From positions 124,093-188,092 of the forward strand of contig JBNLCO010000010.1 in the NCBI GenBank assembly GCA_050303855.1: a DNA stretch of 64,000 nt. Direction: 5' to 3'. Below are positions 12,932 to 53,264 of the stretch, one piece after another. Under the pieces are notes generated by a model. The model worked only from the letters and a program-made list of their open reading frames with translations. It ran no database searches and was not told the origin of the DNA. Within the stretch, counting starts at the first letter, position 1. Each line of letters opens with the position of its first letter. The translations under genes were made by a program, and so were the position numbers. Source of the stretch: Candidatus Pacearchaeota archaeon (GTDB lineage Archaea; Nanobdellota; Nanobdellia; Pacearchaeales; GW2011-AR1).

Positions 12932-12936
12932 TTAAA

Positions 12937-27589: not shown

Positions 27590-28612
27590 ATGTCATTTTT
27601 TGAGGTTCTTATGGATTTAACAAATGAATATTTGAATAAAAAAGTATTGATTACAGGCGGTGGCGGCTTTATTGGAAGCAACCTTGCAATAAAATTAGTA
27701 GAATTAGGCGCAGAAGTTTCGGTAATGGATTCGAAATTAAAGCCTTATGGGTTTAATTTGTTTAATCTTGATCCAGTGTTGGATAAAATAAATATAGATT
27801 ATTCGGATATAAGGGATAGAAATGCTGTTGAAAGGAATATTGCTGGACAAGATATAATCTTTAATTTGGCTGCACAGGTAGGTGAAAAAGTAGGAGAGGA
27901 AAATCCTTTTTTAGACTGGGACATAAATGTTAGAGGGCACATGGAAGTATTAAATGCATGCAAAAACAAAAATAAAGAAGCAAGAATAATATTTCCAGGT
28001 TCAAGGTTACAATATGGTAAGACAAATGGGGCAGAGATAATTTCTGAAAGCCACCCCATGAACCCCTTAACTAATTATGCCAGAAACAAAGTCGTGGGGG
28101 AAGAAATGTACCAAAAACTTAACAAAGAGGGTTTAGAAACGGTAACATTTAGAATTGCTAATCCTTTCGGTCCTCGTGCATCAATTAATAATCCTGGTTA
28201 TTGTATTGTCAATTGGTTTATTGGTAGGGCCTTGGATGGAAAAGATTTACCCATTTATGGAGAAGGGTCTCAGGCAAGAGATTATATTTTTATAGAAGAT
28301 TTAACAGATGCTATGGCAATCGCAGGAGTCCATAAAAATTCTCCAGGAAACACTTACAATTTAGGGTCAGGCCAGAAGACTTTATTCAAAGATATGGCTG
28401 AGAAAATAGTTGCACTTTCAGAAAATAATTATTCAAAAATAAATTTTGTTGAATGGCCAAAAGATGCAAAAGAAAGAGAGACTGGAAATTTTGTCGCAGA
28501 TATCTCAAAGATAGAAAGAGAATTGGGTTGGAAGCCTAAGTATAGTTTAGAAGAGGGTCTGAAAAGAACAATTGAATTTTATAGAGAAAATAAGAACAAT
28601 TATATTGGATAA
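27590..28612 (+). CDS. NAD-dependent sugar-nucleotide epimerase/dehydratase (extended SDR)
   Basis: TGGGGFIGSNL Rossmann motif. YxxxK region present. Confidence 0.7.
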   Translation: MSFFEVLMDLTNEYLNKKVLITGGGGFIGSNLAIKLVELGAEVSVMDSKLKPYGFNLFNLDPVLDKINIDYSDIRDRNAVERNIAGQDIIFNLAAQVGEKVGEENPFLDWDINVRGHMEVLNACKNKNKEARIIFPGSRLQYGKTNGAEIISESHPMNPLTNYARNKVVGEEMYQKLNKEGLETVTFRIANPFGPRASINNPGYCIVNWFIGRALDGKDLPIYGEGSQARDYIFIEDLTDAMAIAGVHKNSPGNTYNLGSGQKTLFKDMAEKIVALSENNYSKINFVEWPKDAKERETGNFVADISKIERELGWKPKYSLEEGLKRTIEFYRENKNNYIG

Positions 28613-28694: not shown

Positions 28695-29279
28695 ATGGAA
28701 GATCAAGAAAGTAAAGTTTATTTTTCGATTGGGGAGAGTATAAATGCAAAAAAATCTTTTTATAGTCGCCCAAAAGATCTTGTTGATATTTCAAACAAAA
28801 TTTATGAGTCTTTAAATAAAGGTCAAAAAATACTTGTTTTTGGGAATGGAGGTAGTGCGGCAGATGCACAACACATTGCAGGAGAGTTAGTTGGAAGGTT
28901 TAAGAAAGAACGTAAAGCTTTAGCAGCAATGGCTTTAACCACAGATACATCCGTAATAACATCATTATCTAATGATTATGATTATTCAAAGGTATTCGAG
29001 AGGCAAATTGAAGCATTTGCTAGGGAAGGAGATATTTTATGGGGAATTTCAACCTCAGGAAACTCGGAAAACGTTATTAAAGGTCTTGAAAAAGGAAGAG
29101 AAATAGGCACTTATAATTTTTCTATGACTGGTAAAGATGGAGGCATAGTAAAGAAATTAAGTGATTTTAATATAAATATTGATTCTAAAAACACTCCAAG
29201 AATTCAGGAAGCACATCAATTGGCGTACCATATTATTTGCGAATTGGTTGAAGATAAAATATATCATAATAATCTTTAA
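28695..29279 (+). CDS. gmhA: SIS-domain sedoheptulose-7-phosphate isomerase (GmhA-like)
   Basis: ..ILVFGNGGSAADAQHIAGELVGRF...GISTSGNSENVI.. GmhA signature. Confidence 0.7.
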   Translation: MEDQESKVYFSIGESINAKKSFYSRPKDLVDISNKIYESLNKGQKILVFGNGGSAADAQHIAGELVGRFKKERKALAAMALTTDTSVITSLSNDYDYSKVFERQIEAFAREGDILWGISTSGNSENVIKGLEKGREIGTYNFSMTGKDGGIVKKLSDFNINIDSKNTPRIQEAHQLAYHIICELVEDKIYHNNL

Positions 29280-29305: not shown

Positions 29306-30286
29306 ATGGTAAGAAATCTTATAACAGGCACTACAGGGATGGTGGGTTCTCATTTGGCAGAATTTCTTTTGGACAAAGGGGAAGAAGTTTATGGAACACG
29401 TCGTTGGCGAAGTAGGATGGATAATTGTAGAGGATTTGAGGACAAAATAAATTGGGTGAATATGGAATTAATTGACGCCCATTCTGTTAGAAATGCTATT
29501 GAAAGTGTAAGACCTGATGTGATCTATCATCTTGCTGCACAAAGCTATGTTGTTGATTCAAAAGATGAGCCTGTAGCCACAATGGAAATTAACGCCCATG
29601 GAACTGCTCATATTCTTGAAACCGTGAAGGAAATGAAGAAAAGAGATGGGTACAACCCTGTTATTCATGTTTGTAGTAGTAGTGAAGTTTATGGGCAGGT
29701 GAATCCGGACGAAGTTCCAATAAAAGAAACAAACCAATATCGACCGGCCTCTCCTTATGCGATAGGAAAGCTAGGAGCAGATATGCTTGCTAGGTGGTAT
29801 TTTGAAGAATATGATCTGAAGACGATACGTACAAGAATGTTTACTCATACAGGGCCAAGAAGAGGGGATGTTTTTGTAGTTTCAGCTTTTGCCAAACAAA
29901 TTGCAAAAATTGAGAAAGGATTACAAAAACCAAAATTAAAAGTAGGTAATCTAGAATCTGTTAGGACTTTTGCAGATGTTAGAGATACTGTGCATGCATA
30001 CTATCTCTTAACTAAGCATTGTAAGCCTGGAGAAGTCTATAACATAGGAGGAAATAGAACAATGAAGATTGGAGAGATGTTGGATATCCTTTTAAGCTAC
30101 TCTCCAATGAAAGATAAAATAGAAGTTGAAGTGGATCCGAATCTTCTAAGAAAAACTGATGTAACATATCAAATACCCGACACATCTAAGTTCAAAAAAG
30201 AAACCGGATGGGATAGCCCAATTCCTCTTGAGAAGACTTTAGAAGACACCCTAGACTATTGGAGAGGGGAATTTAAGAATGAGTAA
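29306..30286 (+). CDS. nucleotide-sugar 4,6-dehydratase (GDP-mannose 4,6-dehydratase-like extended SDR)
   Basis: ITGTTGMVGSHLAEFLL..., RPASPYAIGK, ..FTHTGPRRG.. resemble Gmd/4,6-dehydratase motifs. Confidence 0.65.
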   Translation: MVRNLITGTTGMVGSHLAEFLLDKGEEVYGTRRWRSRMDNCRGFEDKINWVNMELIDAHSVRNAIESVRPDVIYHLAAQSYVVDSKDEPVATMEINAHGTAHILETVKEMKKRDGYNPVIHVCSSSEVYGQVNPDEVPIKETNQYRPASPYAIGKLGADMLARWYFEEYDLKTIRTRMFTHTGPRRGDVFVVSAFAKQIAKIEKGLQKPKLKVGNLESVRTFADVRDTVHAYYLLTKHCKPGEVYNIGGNRTMKIGEMLDILLSYSPMKDKIEVEVDPNLLRKTDVTYQIPDTSKFKKETGWDSPIPLEKTLEDTLDYWRGEFKNE

Positions 30287-31349
30287 AGAAGTAAAAGTAA
30301 AATTAAATCATTTTTCTGGGGAATATGAAAATGATGAAGAGTATTATGAGAAATATTGGTCAATTAAAGTTTTGTTAGATAATTTTAATGTAAAAATTGT
30401 AGATAATGTGAAAGAGGCGGATGTTATATTTGAACAGTGTACAAGAGGAAGTAATTATAATTTTTTAAATGAAAAGAATAAAAAAATAGTGCTCTTTTCT
30501 TCAGAAGATCTATATAAAAAAAGAGATATTTTTAATTTAATAGAATCCTTTCTTTATAAGGTAGGATTGGGGGATAAAAAGTGGAAAATTATAGATAAAC
30601 TAGATAGTATTATTCCTTCAAGTATCTCAAGCATTCCATTGAAATATTTTCTACCAAAACATTTGAAGTTTGTGAGAAAAATTTCAGAAGGAAAAATAAA
30701 AAATGCATACGCAATTGTTCAAAATGATATAAAAGGGGAAAACATCTTGATAATTCCCTGTTTCTTGCATGTTTTTTATTATAATTTGAAAGATTTCACA
30801 AAAAAGAAAAAACAGGAATCAAGTAAAAGGAAGAAATTTTGTGCGTTTATTGTATCTAGCAATTCCTCTAGGGAAAGGGTTAAATTTTTTAAGAAATTGT
30901 CCAAATACAAGAAAATTGATTCTTATGGAAGGGTCATGAATAATATGGGAGATAGTATTTTTAATGGCCACTGGAGTGGAACCCACCCGGAGATATATAA
31001 AGACTATAAATTCGTGATTTGTTTTGAGAATAGTTTTACAAAAGAGTATATTTGTGAGAAATTGCCTAGGACTATGCTTTCTGGAGCAATACCTATATTC
31101 AGAGGTGCTCCAAACATTGGAGAATATTTCAATAAAAAATCTTTCATTAATTATGATAATTATGGAAGTTATGAAAATATGATAAAGAAAATTATTGAGT
31201 TGGATAGTGATGATAAAAGATATGAATCATTCCTAAGAGAACCTTGGTTCAAAGATAACAAGATTCCAAAGATATTTAGAGATAAAGAGAAAGAATTAAT
31301 TCAATTTTATACCAAGATTTTTGGACCTCCAAAGAGAAAATTAAAATGA
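30279..31349 (+). CDS. GT10-family alpha-1,3-fucosyltransferase-like glycosyltransferase
   Basis: ..YKFVICFENSFTKEYICEKL.. matches the GT10 FucT motif (YKFxLxFENS...YxTEK). Confidence 0.5.
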   Translation: MSKEVKVKLNHFSGEYENDEEYYEKYWSIKVLLDNFNVKIVDNVKEADVIFEQCTRGSNYNFLNEKNKKIVLFSSEDLYKKRDIFNLIESFLYKVGLGDKKWKIIDKLDSIIPSSISSIPLKYFLPKHLKFVRKISEGKIKNAYAIVQNDIKGENILIIPCFLHVFYYNLKDFTKKKKQESSKRKKFCAFIVSSNSSRERVKFFKKLSKYKKIDSYGRVMNNMGDSIFNGHWSGTHPEIYKDYKFVICFENSFTKEYICEKLPRTMLSGAIPIFRGAPNIGEYFNKKSFINYDNYGSYENMIKKIIELDSDDKRYESFLREPWFKDNKIPKIFRDKEKELIQFYTKIFGPPKRKLK

Positions 31350-32002
31350 ACAATATTTTTTATGGAATACTTTCTGTAGGGTTTGACATCGATCAAACAA
31401 TGTACGCAAAAAATAGTGAAATAGACTTAATTATTCAAGATGAAATTGCGAGGAAGATTCTTGAAATAAAACCTTCTTTCAATAATCTTGAATCAGCAAA
31501 AGAATTTTCTGAAAGAAGATATTCTGAATTAGGGAGCCGAACAAGTGTGTTAGAAGAGGTTGGCTATAAAAATGCTCAAGAAATCTTGTACGGATGCATT
31601 TCAAGTGATAAAACAATAAACCCTCTCCAGAAAGACGAAAGGCTTCAGGAAATGATTTCAAGATTGGGACATAAATATGATCTTTTTTTAATAACTAATA
31701 ATTCGGAGGATATTGCGACTAAAAAATTAGATCGATTAGGTGTTGACAAGTCTTTATTTAACCTAAAATTTTATGGAGACACATTACCTGGAATAAAAAA
31801 ATCTGATGGTTCTTTGTTCAAATATTTCCTAAGTAGGTCCAAACATTCCCCTGAAAACCACATATATGTCGGAGATAGCCTTAATGCAGACATAATCCCT
31901 TCTAAAAAGCTAGGTTTCAAAACAATTTGTGTAGGAAATCACTTTCTTGAAGCGAATTATTCTGTTAAAGAAATTTATGATATAGAAAATCTTCTTCTAT
32001 AA
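31346..32002 (+). CDS. HAD-superfamily hydrolase (candidate heptose-bisphosphate phosphatase)
   Basis: DxDxT-like ..GFDIDQTM.. N-terminus. Context next to GmhA/HddA. Confidence 0.4.
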   Translation: MNNIFYGILSVGFDIDQTMYAKNSEIDLIIQDEIARKILEIKPSFNNLESAKEFSERRYSELGSRTSVLEEVGYKNAQEILYGCISSDKTINPLQKDERLQEMISRLGHKYDLFLITNNSEDIATKKLDRLGVDKSLFNLKFYGDTLPGIKKSDGSLFKYFLSRSKHSPENHIYVGDSLNADIIPSKKLGFKTICVGNHFLEANYSVKEIYDIENLLL

Positions 32003-32061: not shown

Positions 32062-33849
32062 ATGAAGTTAGCAGATTATGTTATTGATTATTTTGGAGAT
32101 AAGGGAGTGAAGGATATATTTGAGGTCTATGGTGCTGCGAATGGTGATTTGATTGATGCTTTTACGAGAACAGATAAAACAAGATATGTTGCTATAATGC
32201 ACGAACAAGCTGCAGGGTTTGCTACAGAATGTTATTCTAAGATCAGCGGTAAGCCAGGTGTTGCGATAGCCACAAGTGGCCCTGGAGGCCAGAATTTTGT
32301 GACTCCAATTGCAAATTGTTATTATGATTCTGTTCCGGCAATTTTTATAACAGGTCAGGTAAACTCCAGATTTTTAAGGCCTGATGAAAGTATAAGACAG
32401 AGAGGATTCCAAGAAACCCCTATTGCAGAAATTGTTGCTCCCATAACAAAATATTCTAAAATGATTACAGACCCAAGCACAATAAAACATGAACTTGAAA
32501 AAGCATGGTATATTTCCCAAGAAGGAAGACCAGGCCCAATTCTTCTTGATCTTCCGATAGATATTCAAAAAGCGGAAGTAGATCCGTCAAAACTATTTGG
32601 GTTTAATTCAGAAACTTATAAAACCAATTTTAATATGGAACAGGTTAATAACCAGATAGACCACTATCTTGAAGACTTGTCCCGTGCTGAAAGACCAGTT
32701 ATTCTTGTTGGAGGAGGAGTAAGACCTTCAGGAGGAATAGAAAAACTTCTGAGTTTGGGAGAGAAATTAAAAATTCCGATGTTCCCCACATGGAATTCAT
32801 TAGATATTGTTACTTCTGATTACAATTACTATGGAGGAAGGGTTGGAACTTATGGCGGAAAAGGAAGAAACTTTGGTTTGCAGAACTCCGATTTAGTTTT
32901 GGCTTTGGGAAGCAGAATTTCTGGAAGACTTTATGGAAGCCAGACAAAGGCTTTCTTAAGAGATGCAAAGAAATATGTAGTAGATATTGATAAAGCTAAC
33001 TTACAACAAATATTCCAAGAAGTTCCCTTTGACGAGAACATTTTTTGTGACGCGAAAACTTTTATAGAAAGTTTAGATAAAAAGTTGGAAGGTGTTCCTA
33101 AGAAAGATTTCTCTTCATGGACAAGTAAAGTTATGGGTTGGAGAAACAAGTATGACCCTGTAAAGAAAGAATTTTTTGAGGCTAATGAGAATGCAAACCC
33201 CTATGCTTTTTTTAGAACACTTTCTCAAGAAATGAAATCTGGAGATATCCTTGTGGGAGACTGTGGGGGAAATATTGTTGTTGCTAGTCACGCTTTTGAA
33301 ACAAAGAAAGGGCAAAGATTCATTACAAATAATGGAAACTCCCCTATGGGATTTTCATTTTCAGGAGCCATGGGGGCCTACCTTGCTGCAAATGAAGGCC
33401 AAAATGTAGTTTGCACGATTGGAGATGGAGGTTTCAATATGAATATCCAAGAACTACAAACTTTAAAGAATTATGATCTAAATTTCAAGACATTCATAAT
33501 TAACAATGGAATTTATGGTATCACTAAAGCATTCCAAGAAAAGAAGTTTGAGGGTAGGGCTGAAGCATGTGGTCCAAAAGGCTATGTTCCTCCTAATTTT
33601 ATGGCCATATGTGATGCTTACGGAATTAAAACCGAATCTATAAAAGGAAATGATATTGATAGCATGAGAGAGAAAATTGGAGATGTTTTGAATTCAAAAG
33701 GTCCTGTTGTGTGTGATGTAAGTTGTCCAGACTGGCATACTTACGAACCAACAGTTTTTGGATCAGTCCCAATCGAAGAAATGCACCCTCAGTTGCCTGA
33801 AGAAGAATTCAGAGAAAATATGATTATAAAACCTTGGAAAAAGAAATAA
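32062..33849 (+). CDS. thiamine-diphosphate-dependent enzyme (acetolactate-synthase/YerE-like)
   Basis: 595 aa. Pyr domain (..AIMHEQAAGFATECYSKI..), central domain, PP domain with ..GDGGFNMNIQEL.. ThDP-binding motif. Confidence 0.75.
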   Translation: MKLADYVIDYFGDKGVKDIFEVYGAANGDLIDAFTRTDKTRYVAIMHEQAAGFATECYSKISGKPGVAIATSGPGGQNFVTPIANCYYDSVPAIFITGQVNSRFLRPDESIRQRGFQETPIAEIVAPITKYSKMITDPSTIKHELEKAWYISQEGRPGPILLDLPIDIQKAEVDPSKLFGFNSETYKTNFNMEQVNNQIDHYLEDLSRAERPVILVGGGVRPSGGIEKLLSLGEKLKIPMFPTWNSLDIVTSDYNYYGGRVGTYGGKGRNFGLQNSDLVLALGSRISGRLYGSQTKAFLRDAKKYVVDIDKANLQQIFQEVPFDENIFCDAKTFIESLDKKLEGVPKKDFSSWTSKVMGWRNKYDPVKKEFFEANENANPYAFFRTLSQEMKSGDILVGDCGGNIVVASHAFETKKGQRFITNNGNSPMGFSFSGAMGAYLAANEGQNVVCTIGDGGFNMNIQELQTLKNYDLNFKTFIINNGIYGITKAFQEKKFEGRAEACGPKGYVPPNFMAICDAYGIKTESIKGNDIDSMREKIGDVLNSKGPVVCDVSCPDWHTYEPTVFGSVPIEEMHPQLPEEEFRENMIIKPWKKK

Positions 33850-34479
33850 TTAAATTAATATTTTCTCTAATTCGTTTATAAATTTCTTTGAACCTTTACG
33901 AACTATTTTTTTATCTAAATAATTTTCTTCGGTATTGAGAACTAAATAGGAAACAAAATCAACCCCTGGATATTTGAAGTCAAGGTCTATATCTTCCCAG
34001 TACTTTGCTGTTTTATCCCAAACAGATACGTCTGAAGGATCTGAGATAAGTCCATCTGAAGGGGGCCTAGATTTCATTCTTTTCTTTGCTTCAGCCTCAG
34101 AACAAACACATTCTACAACAATTACATTCTTTCCTGCACCCGAAGCTACACCATAAATCTGTTGTCTTCTAAAGGTATGTCTATTTACGCTATCGATTAT
34201 TACCCCTTTCCCTTTGGTTAAATAATCCATTGCAGTCCGATCAATAAGCCTTAAAGTTTCTTCTTGTTTCTTTGGCATTTTTTTTAGTCCTAAATTACGT
34301 CTTACTTCGTTTTGAGAAATATATTCATAATTTTGGAGGCCTTTAGCCAATTTAGCAGAAGCACTAGTTTTACCTGTACCGGGGAAACCAGTCATCAAAA
34401 TGAGGTAATTTTCCATATAACCCCAATTTTTATTTAATTTAAATAGATTTATGTCTTTGTTTAGAATGTTTTCTTCCAT
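33850..34479 (-). CDS. P-loop NTPase/kinase (AAA_33-like)
   Basis: Walker A GFPGTGKTS. ~200 aa. Confidence 0.45.
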   Translation of the reverse strand: MEENILNKDINLFKLNKNWGYMENYLILMTGFPGTGKTSASAKLAKGLQNYEYISQNEVRRNLGLKKMPKKQEETLRLIDRTAMDYLTKGKGVIIDSVNRHTFRRQQIYGVASGAGKNVIVVECVCSEAEAKKRMKSRPPSDGLISDPSDVSVWDKTAKYWEDIDLDFKYPGVDFVSYLVLNTEENYLDKKIVRKGSKKFINELEKILI

Positions 34480-35128
34480 CTAAAATGAGTTCAGATTTTT
34501 TTTCTTTGTATGCAGCAAATATTTCTTCTGAAACATATTTTGGATCCATGGAGTTTTCTCTACCAGGTCGAGTTCTTATTCTAGTTGGATAAACTCCCAT
34601 CACATGTATTCCGTTTTCAATTGCTTCCAAATTTAAGCTATCTGTGAAACCCTTAAGCCCGTATTTGCATGCTGAAGCCACGCTACGAAACTTTTTGCTT
34701 TCAAGGCCCATTATTGAGTTAATATTTATGATTGTTCCAGAGTTCTTCTTTAAAAAAAGAGGATAAATTTCCTTAGATAATTTTATTGGAGCATATAGAT
34801 TTGTTTCGAGTAATTCGTCTACTGTTTCTCTGGATATTTTATCTAAGGGTAAACCAGGACAAAAAACCCCTGCATTATTTACTAAAATTGACAAGTCTTT
34901 TTTCTCTGCAATGTTTGCCAAGTCCTTAATAGTCTTCTCGGATCTTAAATCTCCATAAACCACTTCCACCTTTGACCCGTATTTTAGTATTTCTCTCTGA
35001 GAATCATTTAAGCTAGTTTTATCCCTTCCATGGATTATTAAATTGTAACCTTCTCTTGCAAAAGTTAAAGCTAATTCCTTTCCAAGACCTTTGCTAGAAC
35101 CAGTTATCAGAACAGATTCTTTTTTCAT
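34439..35128 (-). CDS. short-chain dehydrogenase/reductase (classical SDR)
   Basis: ITGSSKGLGKELA cofactor motif. ..NNAG.. and YxxxK regions. Confidence 0.7.
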   Translation of the reverse strand: MKKESVLITGSSKGLGKELALTFAREGYNLIIHGRDKTSLNDSQREILKYGSKVEVVYGDLRSEKTIKDLANIAEKKDLSILVNNAGVFCPGLPLDKISRETVDELLETNLYAPIKLSKEIYPLFLKKNSGTIININSIMGLESKKFRSVASACKYGLKGFTDSLNLEAIENGIHVMGVYPTRIRTRPGRENSMDPKYVSEEIFAAYKEKKSELILDGRKHSKQRHKSI

Positions 35129-35132: not shown

Positions 35133-36044
35133 TTAATTCGAAGAATTTTTTGAATACCAATCCAAAGTTTTTACAATACCTTCTTCAAGCGGGACTTTTT
35201 GAGACCACCCAATTTCATTTGCTTTGGTACAATCTAAGGATAGATTCATCTTAATCGTAGGTTTTGTTGTATCATGCTCAATTTTCAAATTCTTTCCGGA
35301 GGCATTAATGATCTTCTTTGTTAAGTCATTAACTGGTACTTGCTCTCCAGATCCAACATTATAAACCCCATCAAGTTCTTTTTCAAGAGCAATTTCCACA
35401 AAATCTACAAAATCAGAAACATACAAGAAATCTCTTTTTTCTTTTCCATCTCCCCAAATTACAATGCTTTCTCCGTCTGGAGTATTAGTAACTTCATTAA
35501 TTTTTGCTGCAAAAACATGAGAAGTAGCCAAATCAAAATTATCGTTAGGTCCGTAAATATTGGAGTGTCTCATCACAGTATGTTTTGTTCTTCCCAATCC
35601 AGAATAAAAATTGCACATATTTTCAAGATAAATCTTTGTACCTCCTCCACCTGAATATTTTACATTTGGAGAAGTGGGATCTGTTTCCTTATGGGGTTTA
35701 TCGCTTGAAGGGTAAACATTTGTACAGCTTGGAAATATAAACTGTTTAACATTATTTTCAAAAGCACTTCTTAACAAAAGAGAATTCATTACTGCATTAT
35801 CGGTTACATGAATATAAGGCCTCTCTATTATATCTTTAACCCCTGTACTCGTAGCAGCCATTTGAATTATAACGTCTTGACCTTTTACTACCCTTTCAAC
35901 GTCTTCTTTTCTAGTTAAATCGGCATATACATCTGATTTATTTCTAAATCCAACTCCTGTAACATCATATTTATCTTTTAGTCTTTCATATATGTTACTT
36001 CCTAAGAATCCTGTTGCTCCAGTTATTAACACTTTCTTTTTCAT
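35133..36044 (-). CDS. NAD-dependent sugar-nucleotide epimerase/reductase (extended SDR)
   Basis: ITGATGFLGSNIYERL motif. Confidence 0.7.
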   Translation of the reverse strand: MKKKVLITGATGFLGSNIYERLKDKYDVTGVGFRNKSDVYADLTRKEDVERVVKGQDVIIQMAATSTGVKDIIERPYIHVTDNAVMNSLLLRSAFENNVKQFIFPSCTNVYPSSDKPHKETDPTSPNVKYSGGGGTKIYLENMCNFYSGLGRTKHTVMRHSNIYGPNDNFDLATSHVFAAKINEVTNTPDGESIVIWGDGKEKRDFLYVSDFVDFVEIALEKELDGVYNVGSGEQVPVNDLTKKIINASGKNLKIEHDTTKPTIKMNLSLDCTKANEIGWSQKVPLEEGIVKTLDWYSKNSSN

Positions 36045-36081: not shown

Positions 36082-37062
36082 TCATTCAAAGATATTATAT
36101 CTTTTATTTACAATATCTTTATTTTCTTTATACCAATCCATTGTTCTCCGAACTCCCTCTTCTAGAGATACTTTTGGATTCCATCCAAGAGACTTTGCTC
36201 TTGATACATCCATTAACCTTATTTTATCTCCTCTTGGCATAGAAGGATCCCATTTTATGGAGGGTTTTCCTTCAATGTTATTTACAATTATATTTGCTAA
36301 TTCTTTTATGCTCTTTCTTTCCCCTGATCCAAGATTTAAAGGGTAGTCTGGGCCTGGAGCCTTTTCTAAAGCCACAAGCATTCCTTCAGCAACATCCTCT
36401 GAATAAATGAAATCTCTTATTGGACTTCCATCTCCTCCTACTTTAAGGGGATTTTCTCCATCAACAGCCCTTTTTATCAATGAAGGTATTACCATTGCGT
36501 TATTCACATCAAAGTTATCAAAAGGCCCGTAGACATTTGCAGGTCTTACTATTGCTGTTTTATCCCACCCATGTTGAATTTTATATGCCCTTGCTTGTAA
36601 TTCACCAGATCTCTTTGCATAACCCCCAAACAAATCATTCTCGGAAGGAAGCGTTTTGAAAACGTCATCCTCTCTCAAAATTTCGGCAGGTTGATAAACA
36701 CCTATTGTGCTTGTAAACAAGAATCTTTCTGTCCCCTCTTTTCTAGCAGCTTCCATCAAATTTGTATTAAATTGGAGAACAGGAACAAGAAAATTAGCTG
36801 GTTTTTCCAAGGTCATTTTTGGAGAACCTTTTATTCCAAGAAGATTAAAAACATAATCCTGTCCTTCGCAAGCAATTTCACAGTTGTGATAATTGGTTAG
36901 ATCAAGTTTCAAATATTCTGAATTGGGATTTGCCCTTGAAGGATCATCCATTGAAACAACTCTTACATTTGCACCTTCCTCAAGAAGTCTATTTACTAGA
37001 GGCTTTCCAATAAGTCCGGTTCCCCCTGCGACAAGAACGTTTTTTCCCTCATAAAAACCCAT
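36082..37062 (-). CDS. NAD-dependent sugar-nucleotide epimerase/reductase (extended SDR, GDP-fucose-synthase-like)
   Basis: VAGGTGLIGKPLVNRL motif. Confidence 0.7.
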   Translation of the reverse strand: MGFYEGKNVLVAGGTGLIGKPLVNRLLEEGANVRVVSMDDPSRANPNSEYLKLDLTNYHNCEIACEGQDYVFNLLGIKGSPKMTLEKPANFLVPVLQFNTNLMEAARKEGTERFLFTSTIGVYQPAEILREDDVFKTLPSENDLFGGYAKRSGELQARAYKIQHGWDKTAIVRPANVYGPFDNFDVNNAMVIPSLIKRAVDGENPLKVGGDGSPIRDFIYSEDVAEGMLVALEKAPGPDYPLNLGSGERKSIKELANIIVNNIEGKPSIKWDPSMPRGDKIRLMDVSRAKSLGWNPKVSLEEGVRRTMDWYKENKDIVNKRYNIFE

Positions 37063-37173: not shown

Positions 37174-38304
37174 ATGGGAATTTCTTTTGGAGATTTGAGA
37201 GTCAGTAAGGAGTCTAGAAAACATCTTGAAGACTGTCTCAATAATAATATGATTTCTGGAGGAGATAAAGTGAAAATCTTGGAGGATTCTTGGGGAAAAC
37301 TTTTTGGATATAAATATAATGTTGCTATGGGTTCTGGAACAGATGCAGATATGGCTGCTGCAATGACTCTTTATGATACAGTGGAAGCCAAACCAGGTGA
37401 TGAGGTTATCGTTCCTGCTCTTGCATTTGCAGCCGTAGGGAATAGTGTAAGAGCTGCAGGTTTTACACCTAAATTTGTTGACATAGAAAGAGAAACATTA
37501 AACATCAACCCTGATTTGATTGAAGAAAAAATAACTCCAAAAACAAAGGCCATAATGGCAGTCCATACAATGGGAAAACCAAATGAGATGGACAAAATAA
37601 CTCAAATTGCAAACAAGTATAACCTAAGGGTTTTAGAAGATTGTTGTGAATCTCATGGGGGAGAATATAAGGGGAAGTTTTTAGGTAGCTTTGGGGATGC
37701 ATCTGCATTTAGTTTTTATGTTGCACACATTGTTTCTTGTGGTGATGGAGGCATGCTTTCAACAAACTCTGAAGAGATAAGCGATTTAGCCGATTCAGTA
37801 AAACACCACGGAAGAAAACCTAGAACAATTTATTTTGATCATCCAAGATTTGGTATGAATTTTAGGATGAATGCCTTGACAGCTTCCATAGGCATCCCCG
37901 AAATACAAAATTTTTGGAAGATTTTTGATAAAAGAAAAGGCAATTTGAATTATTTACTGGATTCAACAAAAGACCTTCAGGATTTTGCTTATTTTGTTAA
38001 GGAGGAACCTCATGAGGTTGTCTCTCCTCACGCTTTTAGTATAACTCTTAAAAATCCGGATCACGATTTCAAAGGATTGTATGCATTCTTAGAAAAAAAT
38101 GATATAGAATGTAAAAGAAACTTCGGGAGTATGCCAACACAGCATAAAGCTTTTGAATATCTTGGATACAAGAAAGGTGAATTTCCTGAAGCAGAGTATG
38201 TTGGAGATAATGGGTTGCATTTTGGAATCCATCAATTCTTAGAAAAGAGTGATTTAGATTATGCTTCAGAAAAAATCCACGAATATTTTAAAAAATTTAA
38301 ATAA
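37174..38304 (+). CDS. DegT/DnrJ/EryC1/StrS-family PLP/PMP enzyme, ColD/E1-type sugar 3-dehydratase candidate
   Basis: Family fold. Active-site motif reads SFYVAHIVSCGDGG with His where aminotransferases of this family have Lys. Confidence 0.65.
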   Translation: MGISFGDLRVSKESRKHLEDCLNNNMISGGDKVKILEDSWGKLFGYKYNVAMGSGTDADMAAAMTLYDTVEAKPGDEVIVPALAFAAVGNSVRAAGFTPKFVDIERETLNINPDLIEEKITPKTKAIMAVHTMGKPNEMDKITQIANKYNLRVLEDCCESHGGEYKGKFLGSFGDASAFSFYVAHIVSCGDGGMLSTNSEEISDLADSVKHHGRKPRTIYFDHPRFGMNFRMNALTASIGIPEIQNFWKIFDKRKGNLNYLLDSTKDLQDFAYFVKEEPHEVVSPHAFSITLKNPDHDFKGLYAFLEKNDIECKRNFGSMPTQHKAFEYLGYKKGEFPEAEYVGDNGLHFGIHQFLEKSDLDYASEKIHEYFKKFK

Positions 38305-38310: not shown

Positions 38311-39168
38311 TTATTTTTTAGAATCTAAAGATTGAATATAGTTCTTTATTTCATTCAAATTGTCTTCGGATATTTTGTAGAAAAGGTTTTCTTCGGGAAA
38401 ACTTCCAGATCTTATTTCGTTTACATAACTAGACAAACCTTTCTTCATTTCACTTCCAACATCTGAGAATTGTTTTACAAACTTAGCTTTTATTCCGCCT
38501 AAACCAACCACATCGTTAACTATTGCCAAGATACCGTCTACGTTTTTTCCAGCCCCGATTCCGTAAACAGGAATGTTCAAAGATTTTGCGATATATCCTG
38601 CAGGTTCATTTGGAACAGCTTCCAAAAGTATTGCGCAAGCTCCCGCGTCCTGTAATGCTTTTGAATCATTATAGAGGGTTTTGAATCCGTCTAAACTTTT
38701 TGATTGTACAACCCCCATTAGATCTGTTGATTGGGGTGTATATCCTATATGCCCTATTGTCGCTATCCCAGCATCTTTCAAGGCCTTTACTCTTTGAGTT
38801 ACTCTTTCTCCCCCTTCAAGCTTAACTGCATCAACACCTGCTTCTTTCATAAATCTTAATGCATTGAAAGTTGCATTTTCATTAGAAATTTGGTAAGAAC
38901 CTAAAGGCATATCCCCCACAATAAAAGTATTTGGAGCTCCTCTACGGACTGCTTTTGTTAACATGATCATCTCATCCATTGTTACTGGAATAGTATTTTC
39001 ATAACCTAGAAGATTATTTCCTGCAGAATCTCCAACAAGGATCATATCCACTCCAGACTCTTCAGCTATTCTTGCTGTTTGAAAATCATAAGAAGTTATC
39101 CATGTGACTTTTTCCCCTTTTTTTTTCATCTTTACAAGATCTCCGAGGGTTTTTCTCTTTCCTTCCAT
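38311..39168 (-). CDS. 3-methyl-2-oxobutanoate hydroxymethyltransferase (PanB) family protein
   Basis: ..ITSYDFQTARIAEESGVDMILVGDSAGNNLLGYENTIPVTMDEMI..VGDMPLGSY.. matches PanB family signatures. Confidence 0.65.
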   Translation of the reverse strand: MEGKRKTLGDLVKMKKKGEKVTWITSYDFQTARIAEESGVDMILVGDSAGNNLLGYENTIPVTMDEMIMLTKAVRRGAPNTFIVGDMPLGSYQISNENATFNALRFMKEAGVDAVKLEGGERVTQRVKALKDAGIATIGHIGYTPQSTDLMGVVQSKSLDGFKTLYNDSKALQDAGACAILLEAVPNEPAGYIAKSLNIPVYGIGAGKNVDGILAIVNDVVGLGGIKAKFVKQFSDVGSEMKKGLSSYVNEIRSGSFPEENLFYKISEDNLNEIKNYIQSLDSKK

Positions 39169-39394: not shown

Positions 39395-41440
39395 ATGAAA
39401 GCATTGATACTTGCAGGAGGATTTGGTACCCGACTTCAAGGGGTTGTTAAAGATGTTCCAAAACCAATGGCCTCTATTGCGGGAAAACCTTTTTTGGAGC
39501 ATCAGATACGTTATTTGAAAAGACAAGGAATTAACGAATTTATCTTGGGAGTTCATTATAAATCAGATGTCATAAAATCTTATTTTGGCAACGGTATGAG
39601 GCAAGATGTAAGCATAACTTATTCTGAAGAGGATTCTCCTCTTGGAACAGGGGGAGCAATAAAACTCGCGCAGAAATTCATTGACGGGCCATTTTTAGTT
39701 TTGAATGGGGACTCGTATACTGATTTGGATCTGGGCAAATTTATGAGATTCCATGAAAAAAATAATTCTGTTGCAAGCATGGTCTTGCAAAAAATGGAAA
39801 AGGATAATTCCCACTATGGAAATGTTGAATTAGAAGGGGATACAATAAAGAGATATTCCGAAAAAAAATCAGTTGGCAAAGGACTGTCCAATTCAGGAAT
39901 CTATTTATTTGATCAAGAGATATTTGACTACATTCCTGGATCTAAAAAGATTTCTTTGGAAGAAAGAGTGTTTCCTGAACTGGTAAAGAAGGGTGCTATT
40001 TCTGGATTTGTCAACAAAGGTTATTTTGTCGATATCGGAAGACCCGAGACCTATCTTCAATTTAAAAAAGATTTTATTGAGAAATTGCAATCTTCAAAAG
40101 ACATTATTTTAAGAGATGCTATAAAAAAGATGTATGAAAATGGTTCAGACATATTGTTTATGGTTAATGAAGAGAAAGAATTTCAAGGTTTGCTAACAGA
40201 TGGAATTATTAAAAGATACCTAATAAGAGGGGGAGAATTTGAAGCAGGAGTTGATGAAGCCATGATAGAAAAACCAGAAAGGATTGCTACAATAAAAGAC
40301 AGTGAGGATAAAATAAGAGGTTTCTTAAAAGAAGGGGTCAAGAATCTTCCAATACTGGACGAACAAGGAAAAATATACGATATTCGATTTAGAACCGAAG
40401 AGGTAAAAGGAGAAGAATATCCAACCATTAGAGGTAAAACTCCTTTGAGAATAAGTTTTGCAGGAGGCGGTACAGATATGCCCTATTTTTTTGAGAAATA
40501 CGGAGGGGCTGTAATAAGCACAACTATTGATAAGTATTGCAACATTACTGCAAAAAAAAGAGGGGATTCCAAAATCGTAATTAATTCGGATATTTTAGAG
40601 GAGGAAGTGATTTTGGATGCCGGGAATTTAAAATATGATAGAAGTAAATTTGATCTAGTAAAATCAGTATATAATCTTGTAAACCCGGGGTGTGGTGTTG
40701 ATCTCCATTTGAATAATGACGTACCTCCAGGAAGAGGTCTTGGTTCATCTGCATCATTTGCAGTTCTTTTAACTAAAATTTTGGGCAAGCTAAAAGGGAG
40801 TAATTTGAGTGATGAGGAAGTTGCAGAATTTGCTTATAGAGCAGAAGTTGAAGAATTGGGAATAAGAGGAGGCAAGCAAGATCAATACGCTGCAGTATTT
40901 GGAGGATTTAATTGGATGGAATTTGAAAATGGAAATAGAAAAATAATGACATCCCTTAGAATAAAAGAAGATACTTTGAATGAATTGAAAGATCATTTAA
41001 CTTTATGCTACACTGGCAAAGAACATGAATCAATCCATCAACAGAAGTTATTGGAAGACAAATTTAAAAAAGAGAACCAGAGTGCAATTGAAAGGCTAAA
41101 AAGAATGAAACTTAATGCACGAGAAATAAAGAATTATCTTCTATCTCCGACCCCCGATTTTCAAAGGATAGGCGAGATAACCCATAAAATCTGGACAGAT
41201 AAAAAGAAGACTTCTTCGAAAGTAACCAGCAAAGTTATTGAAAACCTTTATGAAGTGGGAATGACTAATGGATCATATGGAGGTAAGCTTTTAGGTTCTG
41301 GTGGGGGAGGCTACTTGTTATTTTTCCATCCTCCAGAAAAAAGGAACAAATTAGAGAGAGGATTATCTCAGGAAGGTGGAGAAATCATGAACTTCAATTT
41401 TACTGAAGATGGTGCCAAGATATGGGTTCCGAACAAATAA
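39395..41440 (+). CDS. Tri-domain protein: sugar-1-phosphate nucleotidyltransferase (HddC-like) + CBS pair + GHMP kinase (HddA-like heptose-7-phosphate kinase)
   Basis: N-terminal MKALILAGGFGTRL. Middle ..GLLTDGIIKRYL...LPILDEQGKIYDI.. CBS-like. C-terminal GHMP motif PPGRGLGSSASFAV. Confidence 0.7.
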   Translation: MKALILAGGFGTRLQGVVKDVPKPMASIAGKPFLEHQIRYLKRQGINEFILGVHYKSDVIKSYFGNGMRQDVSITYSEEDSPLGTGGAIKLAQKFIDGPFLVLNGDSYTDLDLGKFMRFHEKNNSVASMVLQKMEKDNSHYGNVELEGDTIKRYSEKKSVGKGLSNSGIYLFDQEIFDYIPGSKKISLEERVFPELVKKGAISGFVNKGYFVDIGRPETYLQFKKDFIEKLQSSKDIILRDAIKKMYENGSDILFMVNEEKEFQGLLTDGIIKRYLIRGGEFEAGVDEAMIEKPERIATIKDSEDKIRGFLKEGVKNLPILDEQGKIYDIRFRTEEVKGEEYPTIRGKTPLRISFAGGGTDMPYFFEKYGGAVISTTIDKYCNITAKKRGDSKIVINSDILEEEVILDAGNLKYDRSKFDLVKSVYNLVNPGCGVDLHLNNDVPPGRGLGSSASFAVLLTKILGKLKGSNLSDEEVAEFAYRAEVEELGIRGGKQDQYAAVFGGFNWMEFENGNRKIMTSLRIKEDTLNELKDHLTLCYTGKEHESIHQQKLLEDKFKKENQSAIERLKRMKLNAREIKNYLLSPTPDFQRIGEITHKIWTDKKKTSSKVTSKVIENLYEVGMTNGSYGGKLLGSGGGGYLLFFHPPEKRNKLERGLSQEGGEIMNFNFTEDGAKIWVPNK

Positions 41441-41442
41441 AA

Positions 41443-42314
41443 TGAATAATAATAAATCCAAGAAATTTGATTTGAATACTCCTGTTTTATTTTTAGTATT
41501 TAATCGATTAAATTCTACAAAAAAAGTTTTTGAAGAAATTAAGAAAGCTAAGCCAAAAAAAATATTCATAGCTGCAGATGGGCCTCGGAATCAAGAAGAA
41601 AAATCTAAGACAGATTCTGTTAGAGAATATATTATAAAAAACATTAAATGGAAATGTCAGGTCAAAACTCTTTTTCGGGAAAAAAACCTTGGTTGCAAAT
41701 ATGCAGTATCTTCCGCGATTGATTGGTTCTTCAAAAATGTTGAAAGAGGGATTATATTAGAGGATGATTGTTTGCCTAACCAAAGTTTCTTTAGATTTTG
41801 TCAAGAAATGCTTGAAAAATACAGGGATAACGAGAAAATAATGCATGTTTCAGGGACCAATATTGAAGAAGTCTCAAAAATTCCAGAGAGTTATTTCCTC
41901 TCAAGATGCACCAACGTTTGGGGATGGGCTACATGGAGAAGAGCTTGGAAAGATTATGATGTTGAAATGAGAAAATGGCCAATTTGGAAAATAAAAATTC
42001 TTGGTCTGATGAAAAATTATGGACTATTTAACAAAATAAAATCTTGGAGGTTGTATGAATTAACTTATAGAAATAAGATAAATACGTGGGACTACCAATG
42101 GGATTTCTTATGTAGAATAAAAAAAGGACTAAGCATTGTTCCAAAGGTTAATTTGATAACCAATCTCGGTTTTATTGAAGGAACCCATACAGTCAATTAT
42201 CAAAAAAATGAAAAAACATTAAAGAGGAGAGAGCTAAAATTCCCTTTAGAATCCAGAAAAATCAATATTTTGGAAGAATATCAGAAGAAATATTTTAGAT
42301 TCTTTGGGAAATAA
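41443..42314 (+). CDS. putative glycosyltransferase (HlpA-like nucleotide-diphospho-sugar transferase fold)
   Basis: ..VLFLVFNRLNSTKKVFEEI...ILEDDCLP.. pattern. Start at the TAAAATG junction. Confidence 0.4.
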
Positions 42315-43910: not shown

Positions 43911-45716
43911 ATGTGTGGAATAAACGGATTTAATTTTTTAGACAAAAAAACTCTAAGATCTATGAATGGGTCTCTGAGTCATAGGGGCCCTGACGGATCA
44001 GGAGAATTCTTTGATACAAGGGGCAAAGTTTCACTCGGGCATCTAAGACTTTCTATTATTGACTTATCTAAAAAAGGATCTCAGCCAATGACTTATACCC
44101 ACAAAGGGAAGAAGGTAGTTATTGTATTTAATGGGGAAATCTATAATTTTATGGAAATAAAAGAAGATCTCTTGAAAAAAGGACATAGGTTTAAATCAAA
44201 TTCGGATACGGAGATTATAACTGCAAGTTATTTGGAATGGGGAAAGGAATGTGTAAAGAAGTTCAACGGTATGTGGGCTTTTTGTATCTATGATCCTCAA
44301 AAAGAAATCTTGTTCTTATCCAGAGACCGAATTGGAAAAAAGCCAATTTACTATTACTTTGATAAGAAGAAATTTATTTTTTCATCAGAAATAAAGGGTA
44401 TATTGGAACATAAAGTAAAGAAAAAAATAAATCCAGAGTCATTGGATCTTTATTTCTCTCTAGGATTCATCCCTGCTCCTTATTCAATTTATGAGAATAT
44501 ATTTAAGCTAGAGCAAAGACAATCAGTGATATTTGATTTGAACAAGAAAAAACTTACAAAAGAATATTATTATCACTGGCCCGAATATTCACCAAAGAGA
44601 AATAAAGATAAGAATATCGAAGAAATAAAGAATCTTCTGAGGGACTCGGTTAAGAGGAGAATGATTTCTGATGTCCCTTTAGGCGCTTTCCTTTCTGGAG
44701 GTCTCGATAGCTCGACAATAGTTAACTTTGCAAAGAAACTAAACCCAAACATAAATACTTATTCAATTGGATTTGAAGGCAAATATGATGAAACCCAAAA
44801 CATAAACCAAATAGTTAAAAAATTCAAGACAAAACACCACCATAAATATTATCACGAATCTGATTTCAAAAAAGGTTTAAAGAAAATATTTTATTACTAT
44901 GATGAGCCTTTTTCGGATCCTTCCATGTTTCCAACTATATTTCTTTCAAGGTTTGCTCGTCAAAAAATCACAGTATCTCTTAGCGGAGATGGAGGGGATG
45001 AAATTTTTGGAGGTTATCCAAGGTACAAAAAAGCAAAACAACTTGAGAAATTAATGAAAATCCCAAGATTTTTAAGAAAAATTGTTTTACATCTCCCCCT
45101 GCCTTATTCTCTCAAAGAAGGAATCAAATTAAGTTTGAATAAAAAGGATTTGTTCTATTCTGAAGCAAGAAGTGATTTCTATAAACCATTCGTTACTAAG
45201 AATCTGCTTCAAGAAAAATTAGCATCGTGTCTTAAAAGAACAAAAGGCAACCTTGTAGAGGCAGTTAGGCTGATGGACATTGAATTTTATACTCTTCCGG
45301 ATAATTTCTTAACTAAGGTAGACCGAGCTTCTATGGCCAATGGATTAGAGATTAGATGTCCTTTTTTAGATTACAAAATTATAGAATACTCTATGAAAAT
45401 TCCAACAAAATATAGGGTTTCATTATTTAGAGATAAAATTCTTTTTAAGAAAATTATAAAGAATTTCTTGCCCAAAAAGATTATCTCACAAAAAAAGAAA
45501 GGATTTACTCCTCCAATAAATGATTGGATTTCTCGAAAAGAGTACGGAGATACACTCAACAAAATCATATCTGAATTGGAAAAAAATAAGGTGTTGTCTG
45601 GAGATTGGATCAATTTTTATAAAAAAAGGATACTGGATAGAAACTCTCTTGTTGAAAATAACTATAAAATAAGACTTTATTTGTTCTATGAATGGTATAA
45701 ACTTTGGATTAAATAG
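43911..45716 (+). CDS. asnB: asparagine synthase (glutamine-hydrolysing)-family amidotransferase
   Basis: MCGINGF N-terminal nucleophile. ..SGGLDSS.. PP-loop. Confidence 0.8.
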   Translation: MCGINGFNFLDKKTLRSMNGSLSHRGPDGSGEFFDTRGKVSLGHLRLSIIDLSKKGSQPMTYTHKGKKVVIVFNGEIYNFMEIKEDLLKKGHRFKSNSDTEIITASYLEWGKECVKKFNGMWAFCIYDPQKEILFLSRDRIGKKPIYYYFDKKKFIFSSEIKGILEHKVKKKINPESLDLYFSLGFIPAPYSIYENIFKLEQRQSVIFDLNKKKLTKEYYYHWPEYSPKRNKDKNIEEIKNLLRDSVKRRMISDVPLGAFLSGGLDSSTIVNFAKKLNPNINTYSIGFEGKYDETQNINQIVKKFKTKHHHKYYHESDFKKGLKKIFYYYDEPFSDPSMFPTIFLSRFARQKITVSLSGDGGDEIFGGYPRYKKAKQLEKLMKIPRFLRKIVLHLPLPYSLKEGIKLSLNKKDLFYSEARSDFYKPFVTKNLLQEKLASCLKRTKGNLVEAVRLMDIEFYTLPDNFLTKVDRASMANGLEIRCPFLDYKIIEYSMKIPTKYRVSLFRDKILFKKIIKNFLPKKIISQKKKGFTPPINDWISRKEYGDTLNKIISELEKNKVLSGDWINFYKKRILDRNSLVENNYKIRLYLFYEWYKLWIK

Positions 45717-51891: not shown

Positions 51892-51945
51892 ATAAATTTC
51901 AGGATTTAAACCATTATAAAAGGTTGTAACCTCTTAAGAATAAAA

Positions 51946-52021: not shown

Positions 52022-52104
52022 AATTGTTCTCAGAACAAGAAAAGGAGATTTAAATGTTATGCAAGGAACTAAATCTTTAATAATAAGGCTTTAGATGCGA
52101 AATA

Positions 52105-53243: not shown

Positions 53244-53264
53244 GCCCTTATTTCTTGAAAAATT

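Follow-up and report, generated by a model that had tools for sequence, protein, structure and literature searches.

A YerE-like thiamine diphosphate enzyme that probably builds a C-branched deoxysugar within an archaeal N-glycosylation island

What does a protein with the fold of an acetohydroxyacid synthase (AHAS) do among the sugar genes of an archaeon? The question is raised by a 64,000-nucleotide stretch of Candidatus Pacearchaeota DNA (contig JBNLCO010000010.1, positions 124,093 to 188,092; hereafter the window), in which a gene for a thiamine diphosphate (ThDP) enzyme lies within a cluster for glycan synthesis. A preliminary description of the sequence had likened this enzyme to YerE, which adds a two-carbon branch to a CDP-linked dideoxy sugar in Yersinia, and had named as its opposite an ordinary AHAS of branched-chain amino-acid (BCAA) synthesis that lies there by chance. 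YerE-like enzymes add carbon nucleophiles to unactivated ketones to give chiral tertiary alcohols, a reaction that few catalysts perform. Those characterised so far are few, to our knowledge all from Proteobacteria or Mycobacteria and all linked to CDP-sugars. Judging from sequence comparison and gene context, we put at roughly 0.7 the probability that the window encodes a ThDP carboligase of the YerE type whose product is a C-branched deoxysugar destined for an archaeal N-glycan.

The gene occupies an open reading frame (ORF) at 32062–33849 on the plus strand, running from ATG to TAA and encoding 595 amino acids. Pfam recognises TPP_enzyme_N at residues 1–117 (E = 4.5e-30), TPP_enzyme_M at residues 200–338 (E = 6e-25) and TPP_enzyme_C at residues 402–553 (E = 1e-34), each at full length, which bears out the earlier view of a complete three-domain enzyme carrying a GDG…N motif. 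Alignments locate the ThDP/Mg-binding motif, GDG-X25-NN, at residues 454–482 (nucleotides 33421–33507; GDGGFNMNIQELQTLKNYDLNFKTFIINN), and the HEQ triplet containing Glu48, the catalytic residue that activates ThDP, at residues 47–49 (32200–32208). This glutamate is kept across the aligned ThDP enzymes, Gcl excepted. The length of the protein matches that of full-length homologues and, since the database holds one identical protein and thousands of homologues at E = 0, 32062–33849 is not a chance ORF.

Profile searches set the protein apart from AHAS. The top NCBIfam match is TIGR00118, at 365.2 bits against a cut-off of 538.35, and about 20 other AHAS models remain far under their cut-offs. 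Sulfoacetaldehyde acetyltransferase (Xsc) does not appear in the top 25 of 51 NCBIfam matches, and none of the models listed there attains its cut-off. Among structures in the PDB the ranking is JanthE (8rph, 311 bits), PpYerE (5ahk, 273 bits), plant AHAS (242 bits) and E. coli IlvB (213 bits); JanthE and PpYerE are ketone-accepting YerE-like carboligases (PMC12188165, PMC12247030). Raw identities do not discriminate between these enzymes (32.9% to JanthE, 31.4% to PpYerE and 31.7% to AtAHAS), and we therefore built neighbour-joining (NJ) trees, using E. coli IlvB, IlvI and Gcl, three PDB sequences and 13–16 members of the window family as references. IlvB, IlvI, AtAHAS and Gcl were split from the family, JanthE and PpYerE with 100% NJ bootstrap support. 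When Yersinia orthologues of PpYerE were included (recovered by a search with PpYerE, to which they are 67–68% identical), the split from AHAS and Gcl stayed at 100% and YerE proper formed a clade, also at 100%, whose sister comprises the window family and the JanthE group. The phylogenetic comparison foreseen in the preliminary description thus sets the protein apart from IlvB and IlvI and groups it with the YerE type, the comparison with Xsc having been made through NCBIfam.

Discrete residue characters agree with the tree. A six-residue insertion, RPDESI in the window protein (residues 106–111; 32377–32394), occurs in every YerE-type and family sequence and is missing from AHAS and Gcl. RISGR (32914–32928) replaces the RFDDR of AHAS, and the form R[IVL]SGR is found in 13/13 aligned family sequences; GTYG (32845–32856) stands where AHAS has GMHG; and in KAFQE (33526–33540) a Phe replaces Trp574, the residue of acceptor specificity in AHAS, as it does in PpYerE and Yersinia YerE. 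On the binding of FAD the outcome is divided. JanthE binds FAD, which is stabilised by its Tyr268; the equivalent of this residue is kept as the Tyr of GTYG, as are the VGGGV and DID motifs, but an Arg occupies the position of JanthE Pro293. The conserved motifs suggest a structural FAD in the middle domain of the window protein.

The surroundings of the gene are equally unlike those of an AHAS. Sugar-nucleotide and glycosyltransferase (GT) genes border it on either side, and Pfam found no ilvN, ilvC, ilvD or leu gene among the 55 ORFs of at least 150 amino acids in the window (six overlapping or unscanned ORFs excepted), in keeping with the earlier placement of the enzyme among sugar-modifying genes and away from those for BCAAs. 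The intergenic gaps that flank the gene measure only 59 and 0 nt, so that there is no adjoining small subunit. Orthology to IlvB or IlvG was looked for and not found. Cut-offs, tree, diagnostic residues and gene context together lead us to reject an AHAS identity, and by these comparisons the window protein is a YerE-like enzyme from a deep, separate subfamily, about 32% identical to YerE proper.

Which sugar might such an enzyme act on? The preliminary description had pointed to a co-occurring dehydratase of the ColD/E1 type, and this is found at 37174–38304 on the plus strand: a DegT-family protein of 376 amino acids, predicted to be a pyridoxamine phosphate-dependent 3-dehydratase of nucleoside diphosphate (NDP)-4-keto-6-deoxysugars, in which a His takes the place of the Lys that binds pyridoxal phosphate (PLP). 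This His, in the motif SFYVAH, aligns with His220 of E1 and with a Lys in the 3bb8 mutant and in 7b0m and QdtB, the latter two being true aminotransferases, and homologues that keep SFYVAH, 76% and 68% identical, occur in two related loci (L026 and L028, below). In size the protein resembles ColD (390 amino acids) more than E1 (437), alignment with E1 splits in two around an E1-specific segment, and no Fer2/FAD_binding_6 (E3-type) reductase is present among the Pfam-scanned ORFs of the window. By sequence, then, it is of the ColD rather than the E1 type, with neither the Fe-S insert nor an E3 partner.

Three further plus-strand genes bear on the nature of the sugar. The product of 29306–30286 is most similar in the PDB to 7us5, the GDP-D-glycero-D-manno-heptose 4,6-dehydratase of Campylobacter jejuni (300 bits), compared with at most 145 bits for GDP-mannose dehydratases (GMDs), and it reaches only 159 bits against the gmd model TIGR01472, whose cut-off is 415. 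At 28695–29279 lies a GmhA-like sedoheptulose-7-phosphate isomerase with an SIS_2 domain (TIGR00441, 201.3 bits against 209.45), and at 39395–41440 a 681-residue fusion of a nucleotidyltransferase and a GHMP kinase (Pfam NTP_transferase and GHMP_kinases) that resembles HddC joined to HddA; its best NCBIfam matches, HddA at 246 bits (cut-off 600) and HddC at 197 (cut-off 300), are both below cut-off. The same fusion is found in L003 and L026, whereas L001, L004 and L005, all bacterial, have two separate genes. No GmhB was recognised by NCBIfam, only a generic HAD protein; the HAD-family phosphatase encoded directly upstream of the ThDP gene (31346–32002, plus strand; Pfam HAD_2) is a possible GmhB analogue. 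The presence of the 7us5-like dehydratase, GmhA and the HddC-HddA fusion makes a heptose acceptor probable, and the nucleotide sugar is probably GDP-linked. In C. jejuni a 4,6-dehydratase and a PLP-dependent C3-dehydratase turn GDP-heptose into GDP-3,6-dideoxy-4-keto-α-D-threo-heptose (PMC10440746), and on balance we favour GDP-3,6-dideoxy-4-keto-heptose as the acceptor in the window.

The window protein belongs to a large conserved family, 55–78% identical, that extends through DPANN archaea, the candidate phyla radiation (CPR) and other bacteria. Each of the best 120 database clusters shares at least 60% identity with it, and the nearest relatives are annotated as 'archaeon', Woesearchaeota, Nanoarchaeia and Pacearchaeota. 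Scanning a single genome for each species gave 21 loci, from Woesearchaeota, Pacearchaeota, Saccharibacteria, Parcubacteria, Liptonbacteria, Terriglobia, Pelagibacteraceae, Planctomycetia, Rhodospirillales and others; with four contexts from exact look-ups and the window itself this makes 26 loci (L numbers), which span at least ten lineages. Partner genes were obtained by unbiased clustering of all ORFs of the loci, followed by annotation and a recount. The context is a glycan cluster in 26/26 loci, and the commonest partner is a His-type (ColD/E1) 3-dehydratase, encoded within 10 kb of the ThDP gene in 15/26 loci; the association seen in the window accordingly recurs in 14 others, from unrelated lineages. 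Among the DegT paralogues of the loci a single one has Lys. In L006, L010, L013 and L016, all bacterial, the 4,6-dehydratase passes the GMD equivalog cut-off (456–565 bits against 415), and these four loci combine a true GMD with a His-type dehydratase, which is the front end of a colitose-type pathway. An extended short-chain dehydrogenase/reductase (SDR) of family F2 is encoded directly downstream of the ThDP gene in nine loci; F2 members are the best matches to the SDR at the YerF position in Yersinia, yet the matches are weak (E = 5e-5). The closest relative of the window, L026, has a ThDP protein 78% identical within a syntenic cluster.

The classical layout is represented by a Yersinia bercovieri locus (L029), in which ddhD (E3), ddhA, ddhB, ddhC (a 437-residue E1 with the His motif), the ThDP gene, an extended SDR, gtrA and a GT2 gene follow one another, the ThDP protein being an orthologue of PpYerE (68% identical). 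This compact cassette (ddhD-ddhA-ddhB-ddhC-yerE-yerF-gtrA-GT2, 5785–13961) adjoins a transposase gene and a toxin-antitoxin-like pair, and it looks like a mobile, serotype-converting yersiniose module of the Gtr type rather than the main O-antigen locus. A tblastn search of annotated plasmids and phages returned ordinary ilvB genes only, at about 30% identity. Members of both the window family and YerE proper are widely labelled 'acetolactate synthase I/II/III large subunit' (JGI) or 'thiamine pyrophosphate-binding protein' (NCBI). Such labels look like systematic misannotation and could inflate the capacity for BCAA biosynthesis that is deduced for DPANN and CPR genomes.

Since the acceptor of YerE is an NDP-3,6-dideoxy-4-keto sugar (PMC9306805), and since the commonest partner in our loci makes just such a compound, we propose that it is this 4-keto intermediate which the ThDP enzyme intercepts. 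The donor is a separate matter, on which the neighbouring genes also bear. The window encodes a PanB (ketopantoate hydroxymethyltransferase; 38311–39168, minus strand) that exceeds the cut-offs of two NCBIfam PanB models (305 against 272 bits and 253 against 207.55) with its catalytic motifs intact, and that is a candidate supplier of a 4-hydroxy-2-oxo-acid donor. PanB occurs in seven of the 26 loci (the window, L001, L002, L015, L020, L027 and L028), genome-reduced DPANN and CPR organisms being among these unrelated lineages, a recurrence with a binomial P of 6e-7 against a generous background of 2%. It usually adjoins the ThDP gene immediately or is translationally coupled to it (L001, L015, L020, L027 and L028; for example L001 9099–10004, L015 6711–7619, L027 9072–10001 and L028 9163–9999), and every PanB that adjoins a ThDP gene exceeds the PanB equivalog cut-offs. 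An apparent PanB-ThDP fusion in L015 (an 887-residue ORF) was rejected, since it arises from spurious long ORFs on a high-GC contig and the two genes in fact stand 6 nt from each other.

A class-I/II (aspartate-type) aminotransferase is encoded in ten loci, in nine of them directly upstream of the ThDP gene, and in no locus together with PanB (hypergeometric P = 0.017). This exclusivity fits two alternative solutions to the supply of a donor. About one-third of the loci have neither gene. No HpaI/BphI-type aldolase was found at the loci as a donor supplier. Among known relatives, ErwE rejects pyruvate and takes 4-hydroxy-2-oxo acids, the longer-branched sugars using donors from a co-encoded enzyme (Steitz et al., PMC9306805), and transamination has been named as another possible route to the donor (PMC9306805). 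That PanB or an aminotransferase recurs beside the ThDP gene suggests a 2-oxo-acid donor other than pyruvate. With PanBs that pass the equivalog cut-offs, and a window PanB with intact motifs, the default product would be ketopantoate or a close analogue. That a PanB product is the donor we propose tentatively; if so, an enzyme of the pantothenate pathway may have been recruited into the synthesis of a sugar side chain. Our literature searches found no report of coupling to PanB or to an aminotransferase, nor of archaeal YerE-like enzymes.

Beside the module of ThDP gene and PanB or aminotransferase there is in L001, L004, L005, L015, L027 and L028 a gene for a B12-binding radical S-adenosylmethionine (SAM) enzyme, which is not present in the window and which may C-methylate the donor or the side chain. 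In L028 a 408-residue ThDP protein of the E1_dh type (2-oxo-acid dehydrogenase E1) lies beside this radical SAM module.

Taken in order, the proposed pathway would begin with GmhA, the HddC-HddA fusion and a phosphatase, which would yield GDP-D-glycero-D-manno-heptose; the heptose-type 4,6-dehydratase and the ColD-type 3-dehydratase would convert this to GDP-3,6-dideoxy-4-keto-heptose. The ThDP enzyme would then decarboxylate a 2-oxo acid, and the ThDP-bound acyl-anion equivalent would attack the C4 carbonyl of the sugar, giving a tertiary alcohol that bears an acyl branch. The 2-oxo acid is probably not simply pyruvate; PanB would provide a 4-hydroxy-2-oxo acid such as ketopantoate and the aminotransferase 2-oxo acids derived from amino acids. 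One of the adjoining SDRs would reduce the ketone of the side chain, and transferases of the GT10, GT2 and GT4 families, a flippase and AglB would attach the sugar to protein. The product is likely to be a C4-branched GDP-3,6-dideoxyheptose. The earlier proposal of a YerE-like, C-branched dideoxy sugar is supported by the tree grouping and by the association with the dehydratase, but is altered in four respects: the sugar would be GDP- and not CDP-linked and is probably a heptose, its branch need not have two carbons, the product is probably meant for an archaeal N-glycan, and the enzyme comes from a subfamily separate from YerE proper.

Four SDRs in the window could serve in such a pathway. 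A classical SDR of 229 amino acids (34439–35128, minus strand; Pfam adh_short), 49–62% identical to counterparts in L002, L003 and L026, is the candidate side-chain ketoreductase. It is followed by two extended SDRs that resemble GDP-fucose synthase, both on the minus strand: an epimerase/reductase at 35133–36044, conserved in L002, L003 and L008, and a second at 36082–37062, about 61% identical in L002 and L003. An extended SDR of the epimerase/dehydratase kind at 27590–28612 (plus strand) is 26–30% related to family F5, found in six loci. PDB searches with the three extended SDRs gave generic matches only. On its other side the ThDP gene is abutted by a convergent gene for an AAA_33/KTI12-like P-loop kinase (33850–34479, minus strand), which in the PDB has weak PSTK matches only. 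Upstream, the HAD phosphatase gene is overlapped (ATGA) by that of a GT10 (fucosyltransferase-like) glycosyltransferase (30279–31349, plus strand), which is conserved in L026; this archaeal member of the alpha-1,3-fucosyltransferase family has no NCBIfam match.

Several observations weigh against the carboligase reading or parts of it. The 31–33% identity of the window protein to characterised YerE-type enzymes is equal to its identity to plant AHAS; our tree, built by simple NJ, has few references, and YpYerE, ErwE, MMAR_2332 and Xsc lie outside it; and the physiological substrates of JanthE and PpYerE are themselves not established (PMC12188165). GmhA is found in the window and in 0/25 other loci, and the L026 cluster has neither PanB nor GmhA, which makes these two accessory genes. 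The window PanB lies 4.5 kb from the ThDP gene on the opposite strand and cannot be told by sequence from a housekeeping PanB, and across the loci partnership with PanB or with the aminotransferase does not track the phylogeny of the ThDP protein, which speaks for either a common donor or a promiscuous enzyme. None of the four window SDRs convincingly matches YerF or F2, and the two that resemble GDP-fucose synthase fit an unbranched deoxyheptose end product equally well. Finally, the pair of HAD and AAA_33 genes, which flanks the ThDP gene in every DPANN locus (the window, L002, L003, L026 and L028) and in 0 bacterial loci, is unexplained by the proposed pathway.

Against this background three other readings have to be set. 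The same YerE-type branching could, as in the preliminary description, run on plain pyruvate, leaving on the GDP-sugar an acetyl or 1-hydroxyethyl branch of the yersiniose kind, with the window PanB an unrelated enzyme of the CoA pathway or an incidental neighbour. Pyruvate is the donor of YpYerE (PMC9306805, PMC12247030), and the missing PanB of L026 (the nearest syntenic relative), the canonical scores and distant position of the window PanB and the one-third of loci without either partner are all compatible with it. Pyruvate requires no dedicated supply enzyme, however, and the occurrence of PanB beside the ThDP gene in six unrelated lineages (P = 6e-7), to the exclusion of the aminotransferase, is hard to explain if neither feeds the ThDP enzyme; we therefore consider a pyruvate donor unlikely. 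In another arrangement the ThDP enzyme would act on small 2-oxo acids only, as an acyloin synthase or decarboxylase that, in concert with an SDR and either PanB or the aminotransferase, makes a hydroxy-acid, aldehyde or pantoate-like substituent of the glycan, without a C–C bond to the ring. PanB, the aminotransferase and the ThDP enzyme do all act on free 2-oxo acids; the succession of AHAS and PanB is known from the route to pantoate; and the P-loop kinase and HAD phosphatase that flank the gene in DPANN loci, together with an AsnB-like amidotransferase that recurs nearby, can be read in the same sense. But the commonest partner, a 3-dehydratase that produces a 4-keto-3-deoxy sugar in 15/26 loci, would then go unexplained, as would the YerE-type residues of the acceptor site (Trp574 replaced by Phe, RFDDR lost), and the Pfam-scanned ORFs of the window contain no IlvC or IlvD to connect acetolactate to PanB. 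We regard this arrangement as quite improbable. A related idea, the de novo synthesis of an activated small polyol by PanB, the ThDP enzyme, the GHMP kinase and the NTP-transferase, was dropped, the kinase and transferase being HddA/HddC-like and 3-dehydratases the dominant partner.

As for a genuine AHAS catalytic subunit, placed in the island by chance, the top rank of TIGR00118 among NCBIfam models, the JGI label 'acetolactate synthase large subunit' on homologues and the features held in common with AHAS (the Arg377 equivalent, the Gln of FQE and the FAD-domain framework) all speak for it. They are outweighed by a TIGR00118 score (365 bits) well short of the 538 cut-off, the 100% bootstrap against grouping with AHAS, the absence of an adjoining small subunit and of ilvC or ilvD in the Pfam-scanned 64 kb, and the glycan cluster in all 26 loci, so that an AHAS of BCAA synthesis is effectively refuted. 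The carboligase reading in its widest form, that of a horizontally mobile cassette shared by DPANN archaea with CPR and free-living bacteria for undescribed C4-acyl-branched GDP-3,6-dideoxy sugars (a heptose in this archaeon), whose side chain would derive from ketopantoate or a different PanB product or from an amino-acid-derived 2-oxo acid, we hold to be possible but rather doubtful.

How does the proposed carboligase compare with systems already described? Like YerE of Yersinia pseudotuberculosis it is predicted to be a three-domain, FAD-type ThDP enzyme with the six-residue insertion, the Tyr of GxYG and the same residue before FQE's Gln-Glu pair in the KAFQE motif; as in the YerE/YerF cluster for yersiniose A in Y. 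bercovieri, it is encoded with a His-type 3-dehydratase, a 4,6-dehydratase and an SDR; and the proposed chemistry, addition of an acyl anion at the C4 keto group of an NDP-3,6-dideoxy-4-keto sugar, is the same. It differs in being only 32% identical and in a separate clade (100% support), in drawing on a GDP-sugar made by a GMD or heptose dehydratase and a 376-residue, E3-independent ColD-type enzyme instead of a CDP-sugar made by DdhA, DdhB, a 437-residue E1 and E3, and in lying, without a recognisable YerF, in an archaeon with AglB, whereas YerE serves a bacterial lipopolysaccharide O-antigen. With ErwE, MMAR_2332 and MyGE, of erwiniose, caryophyllose and gastriose synthesis (PMC9306805), the window family shares the logic of a donor-making enzyme, a ThDP 'E' enzyme and an 'F' reductase, and the preferred donors of these enzymes are 4-hydroxy-2-oxo acids, the class of compound that PanB produces. 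In these systems, which we compared by description and not by sequence, the supplier is an HpaI/BphI or a citrate-lyase-type pyruvate aldolase rather than PanB or a class-I aminotransferase.

JanthE, from Janthinobacterium sp. HH01, is the best solved structure (8rph; 311 bits, 33% identity) and a member of the window family's sister group in the tree, with its FAD-stabilising Tyr268 conserved in the window protein; its cofactor motif, however, is CDG where the window protein has GDG, and it lacks the Arg of RISGR. With the AHAS enzymes (IlvB, IlvI, IlvG and those of plants) the window protein has in common the fold, the domain order, the catalytic Glu, GDG…NN, the Gln of FQE, a probable FAD site and about 28–32% identity, but it fails their cut-offs, carries the insertion and RISGR, GTYG and the Phe, is accompanied by no regulatory subunit or BCAA neighbours and is phylogenetically apart. 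The GDP-3,6-dideoxyheptose pathway of C. jejuni (PMC10440746) and that of colitose (GMD and ColD) supply the proposed type of acceptor. They end in C5 epimerisation and C4 reduction, whereas here an added ThDP enzyme is proposed to capture the 4-keto intermediate.

The destination of the product is suggested by the island in which the gene lies, about 30 kb (18824–48980) between SecY and EMC3-like genes and SecDF. Near its beginning are, on the plus strand, a Glycos_transf_4 (AglH/WecA-like) initiating transferase (20650–21636; Pfam) and a 913-residue AglB/STT3 oligosaccharyltransferase (21674–24415; Pfam STT3 and STT3-PglB_core), syntenic in L026; at the far end, with SecDF beyond, is a Wzx-type flippase (Polysacc_synt/MatE by Pfam; 47586–48980, minus strand). 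An FkbM methyltransferase and several GT1, GT2, GT10 and WecG-type transferases are also encoded there. The presence of AglB/STT3 identifies the island as an N-glycosylation locus, and an archaeal host with AglB in the island makes an N-glycan the probable destination. The arrangement of S13 operon, SecFD and island recurs on a Nanoarchaeia contig (L028), which, with the annotation of the nearest relatives of the ThDP protein, makes a DPANN-type host likely. There is no sign in the base composition of a recent transfer of the island, GC being 30–36% throughout the window.

The island also contains an AsnB-type glutamine amidotransferase (43911–45716, plus strand), with homologues 34% identical near the ThDP gene in L007, L009 and L017, for which a uronic acid or carboxylated side chain might be the substrate. 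Elsewhere in the window an archaeal ribosomal-protein operon, with S4e, L19e and L24P/L26e among its genes, fills 3.1–16.2 kb and is followed by SecY and the EMC3-like gene, and DUF655-S13-S4-S11-RpoD is found at 55.3–58.1 kb. Between SecDF and the S13 operon stand a solitary 5S rRNA gene (53264–53379, plus strand; Rfam, 64 bits) and, on the minus strand, three tRNA genes (51444–51531, 51945–52022 and 52891–52976). To the first of these ARAGORN assigned no identity (its anticodon call has two bases, 'tc'), and it may contain an intron or an atypical loop. The ORFs 52105–52920 and 53376–54119 overlap RNA genes and are probably spurious. Pfam gave no match for five consecutive minus-strand ORFs of 188–396 amino acids (58526–63479), for 41409–42314 (301 amino acids; conserved in L017 and L026) or for 256–819.

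The findings extend a known class of bacterial enzyme to new hosts, archaea and CPR bacteria, and to new partner enzymes, and they define a subfamily that goes with GDP-sugars and ColD-type dehydratases and has new donor-supplying partners, namely PanB, a class-I aminotransferase and, often, a B12-radical SAM enzyme. If our assignment is right, the label 'acetolactate synthase large subunit' would need correction on thousands of database entries, and biocatalysis would gain a wider toolbox of donors and acceptors. It would also lead one to expect that DPANN archaea, CPR bacteria and SAR11-type marine bacteria, organisms whose glycans have hardly been studied, carry on their surfaces branched sugars not yet known. 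Should the reading as a shared cassette hold as well, an archaeal N-glycan would for the first time be found to contain a branched-chain sugar, and PanB to have been recruited into glycan biosynthesis.

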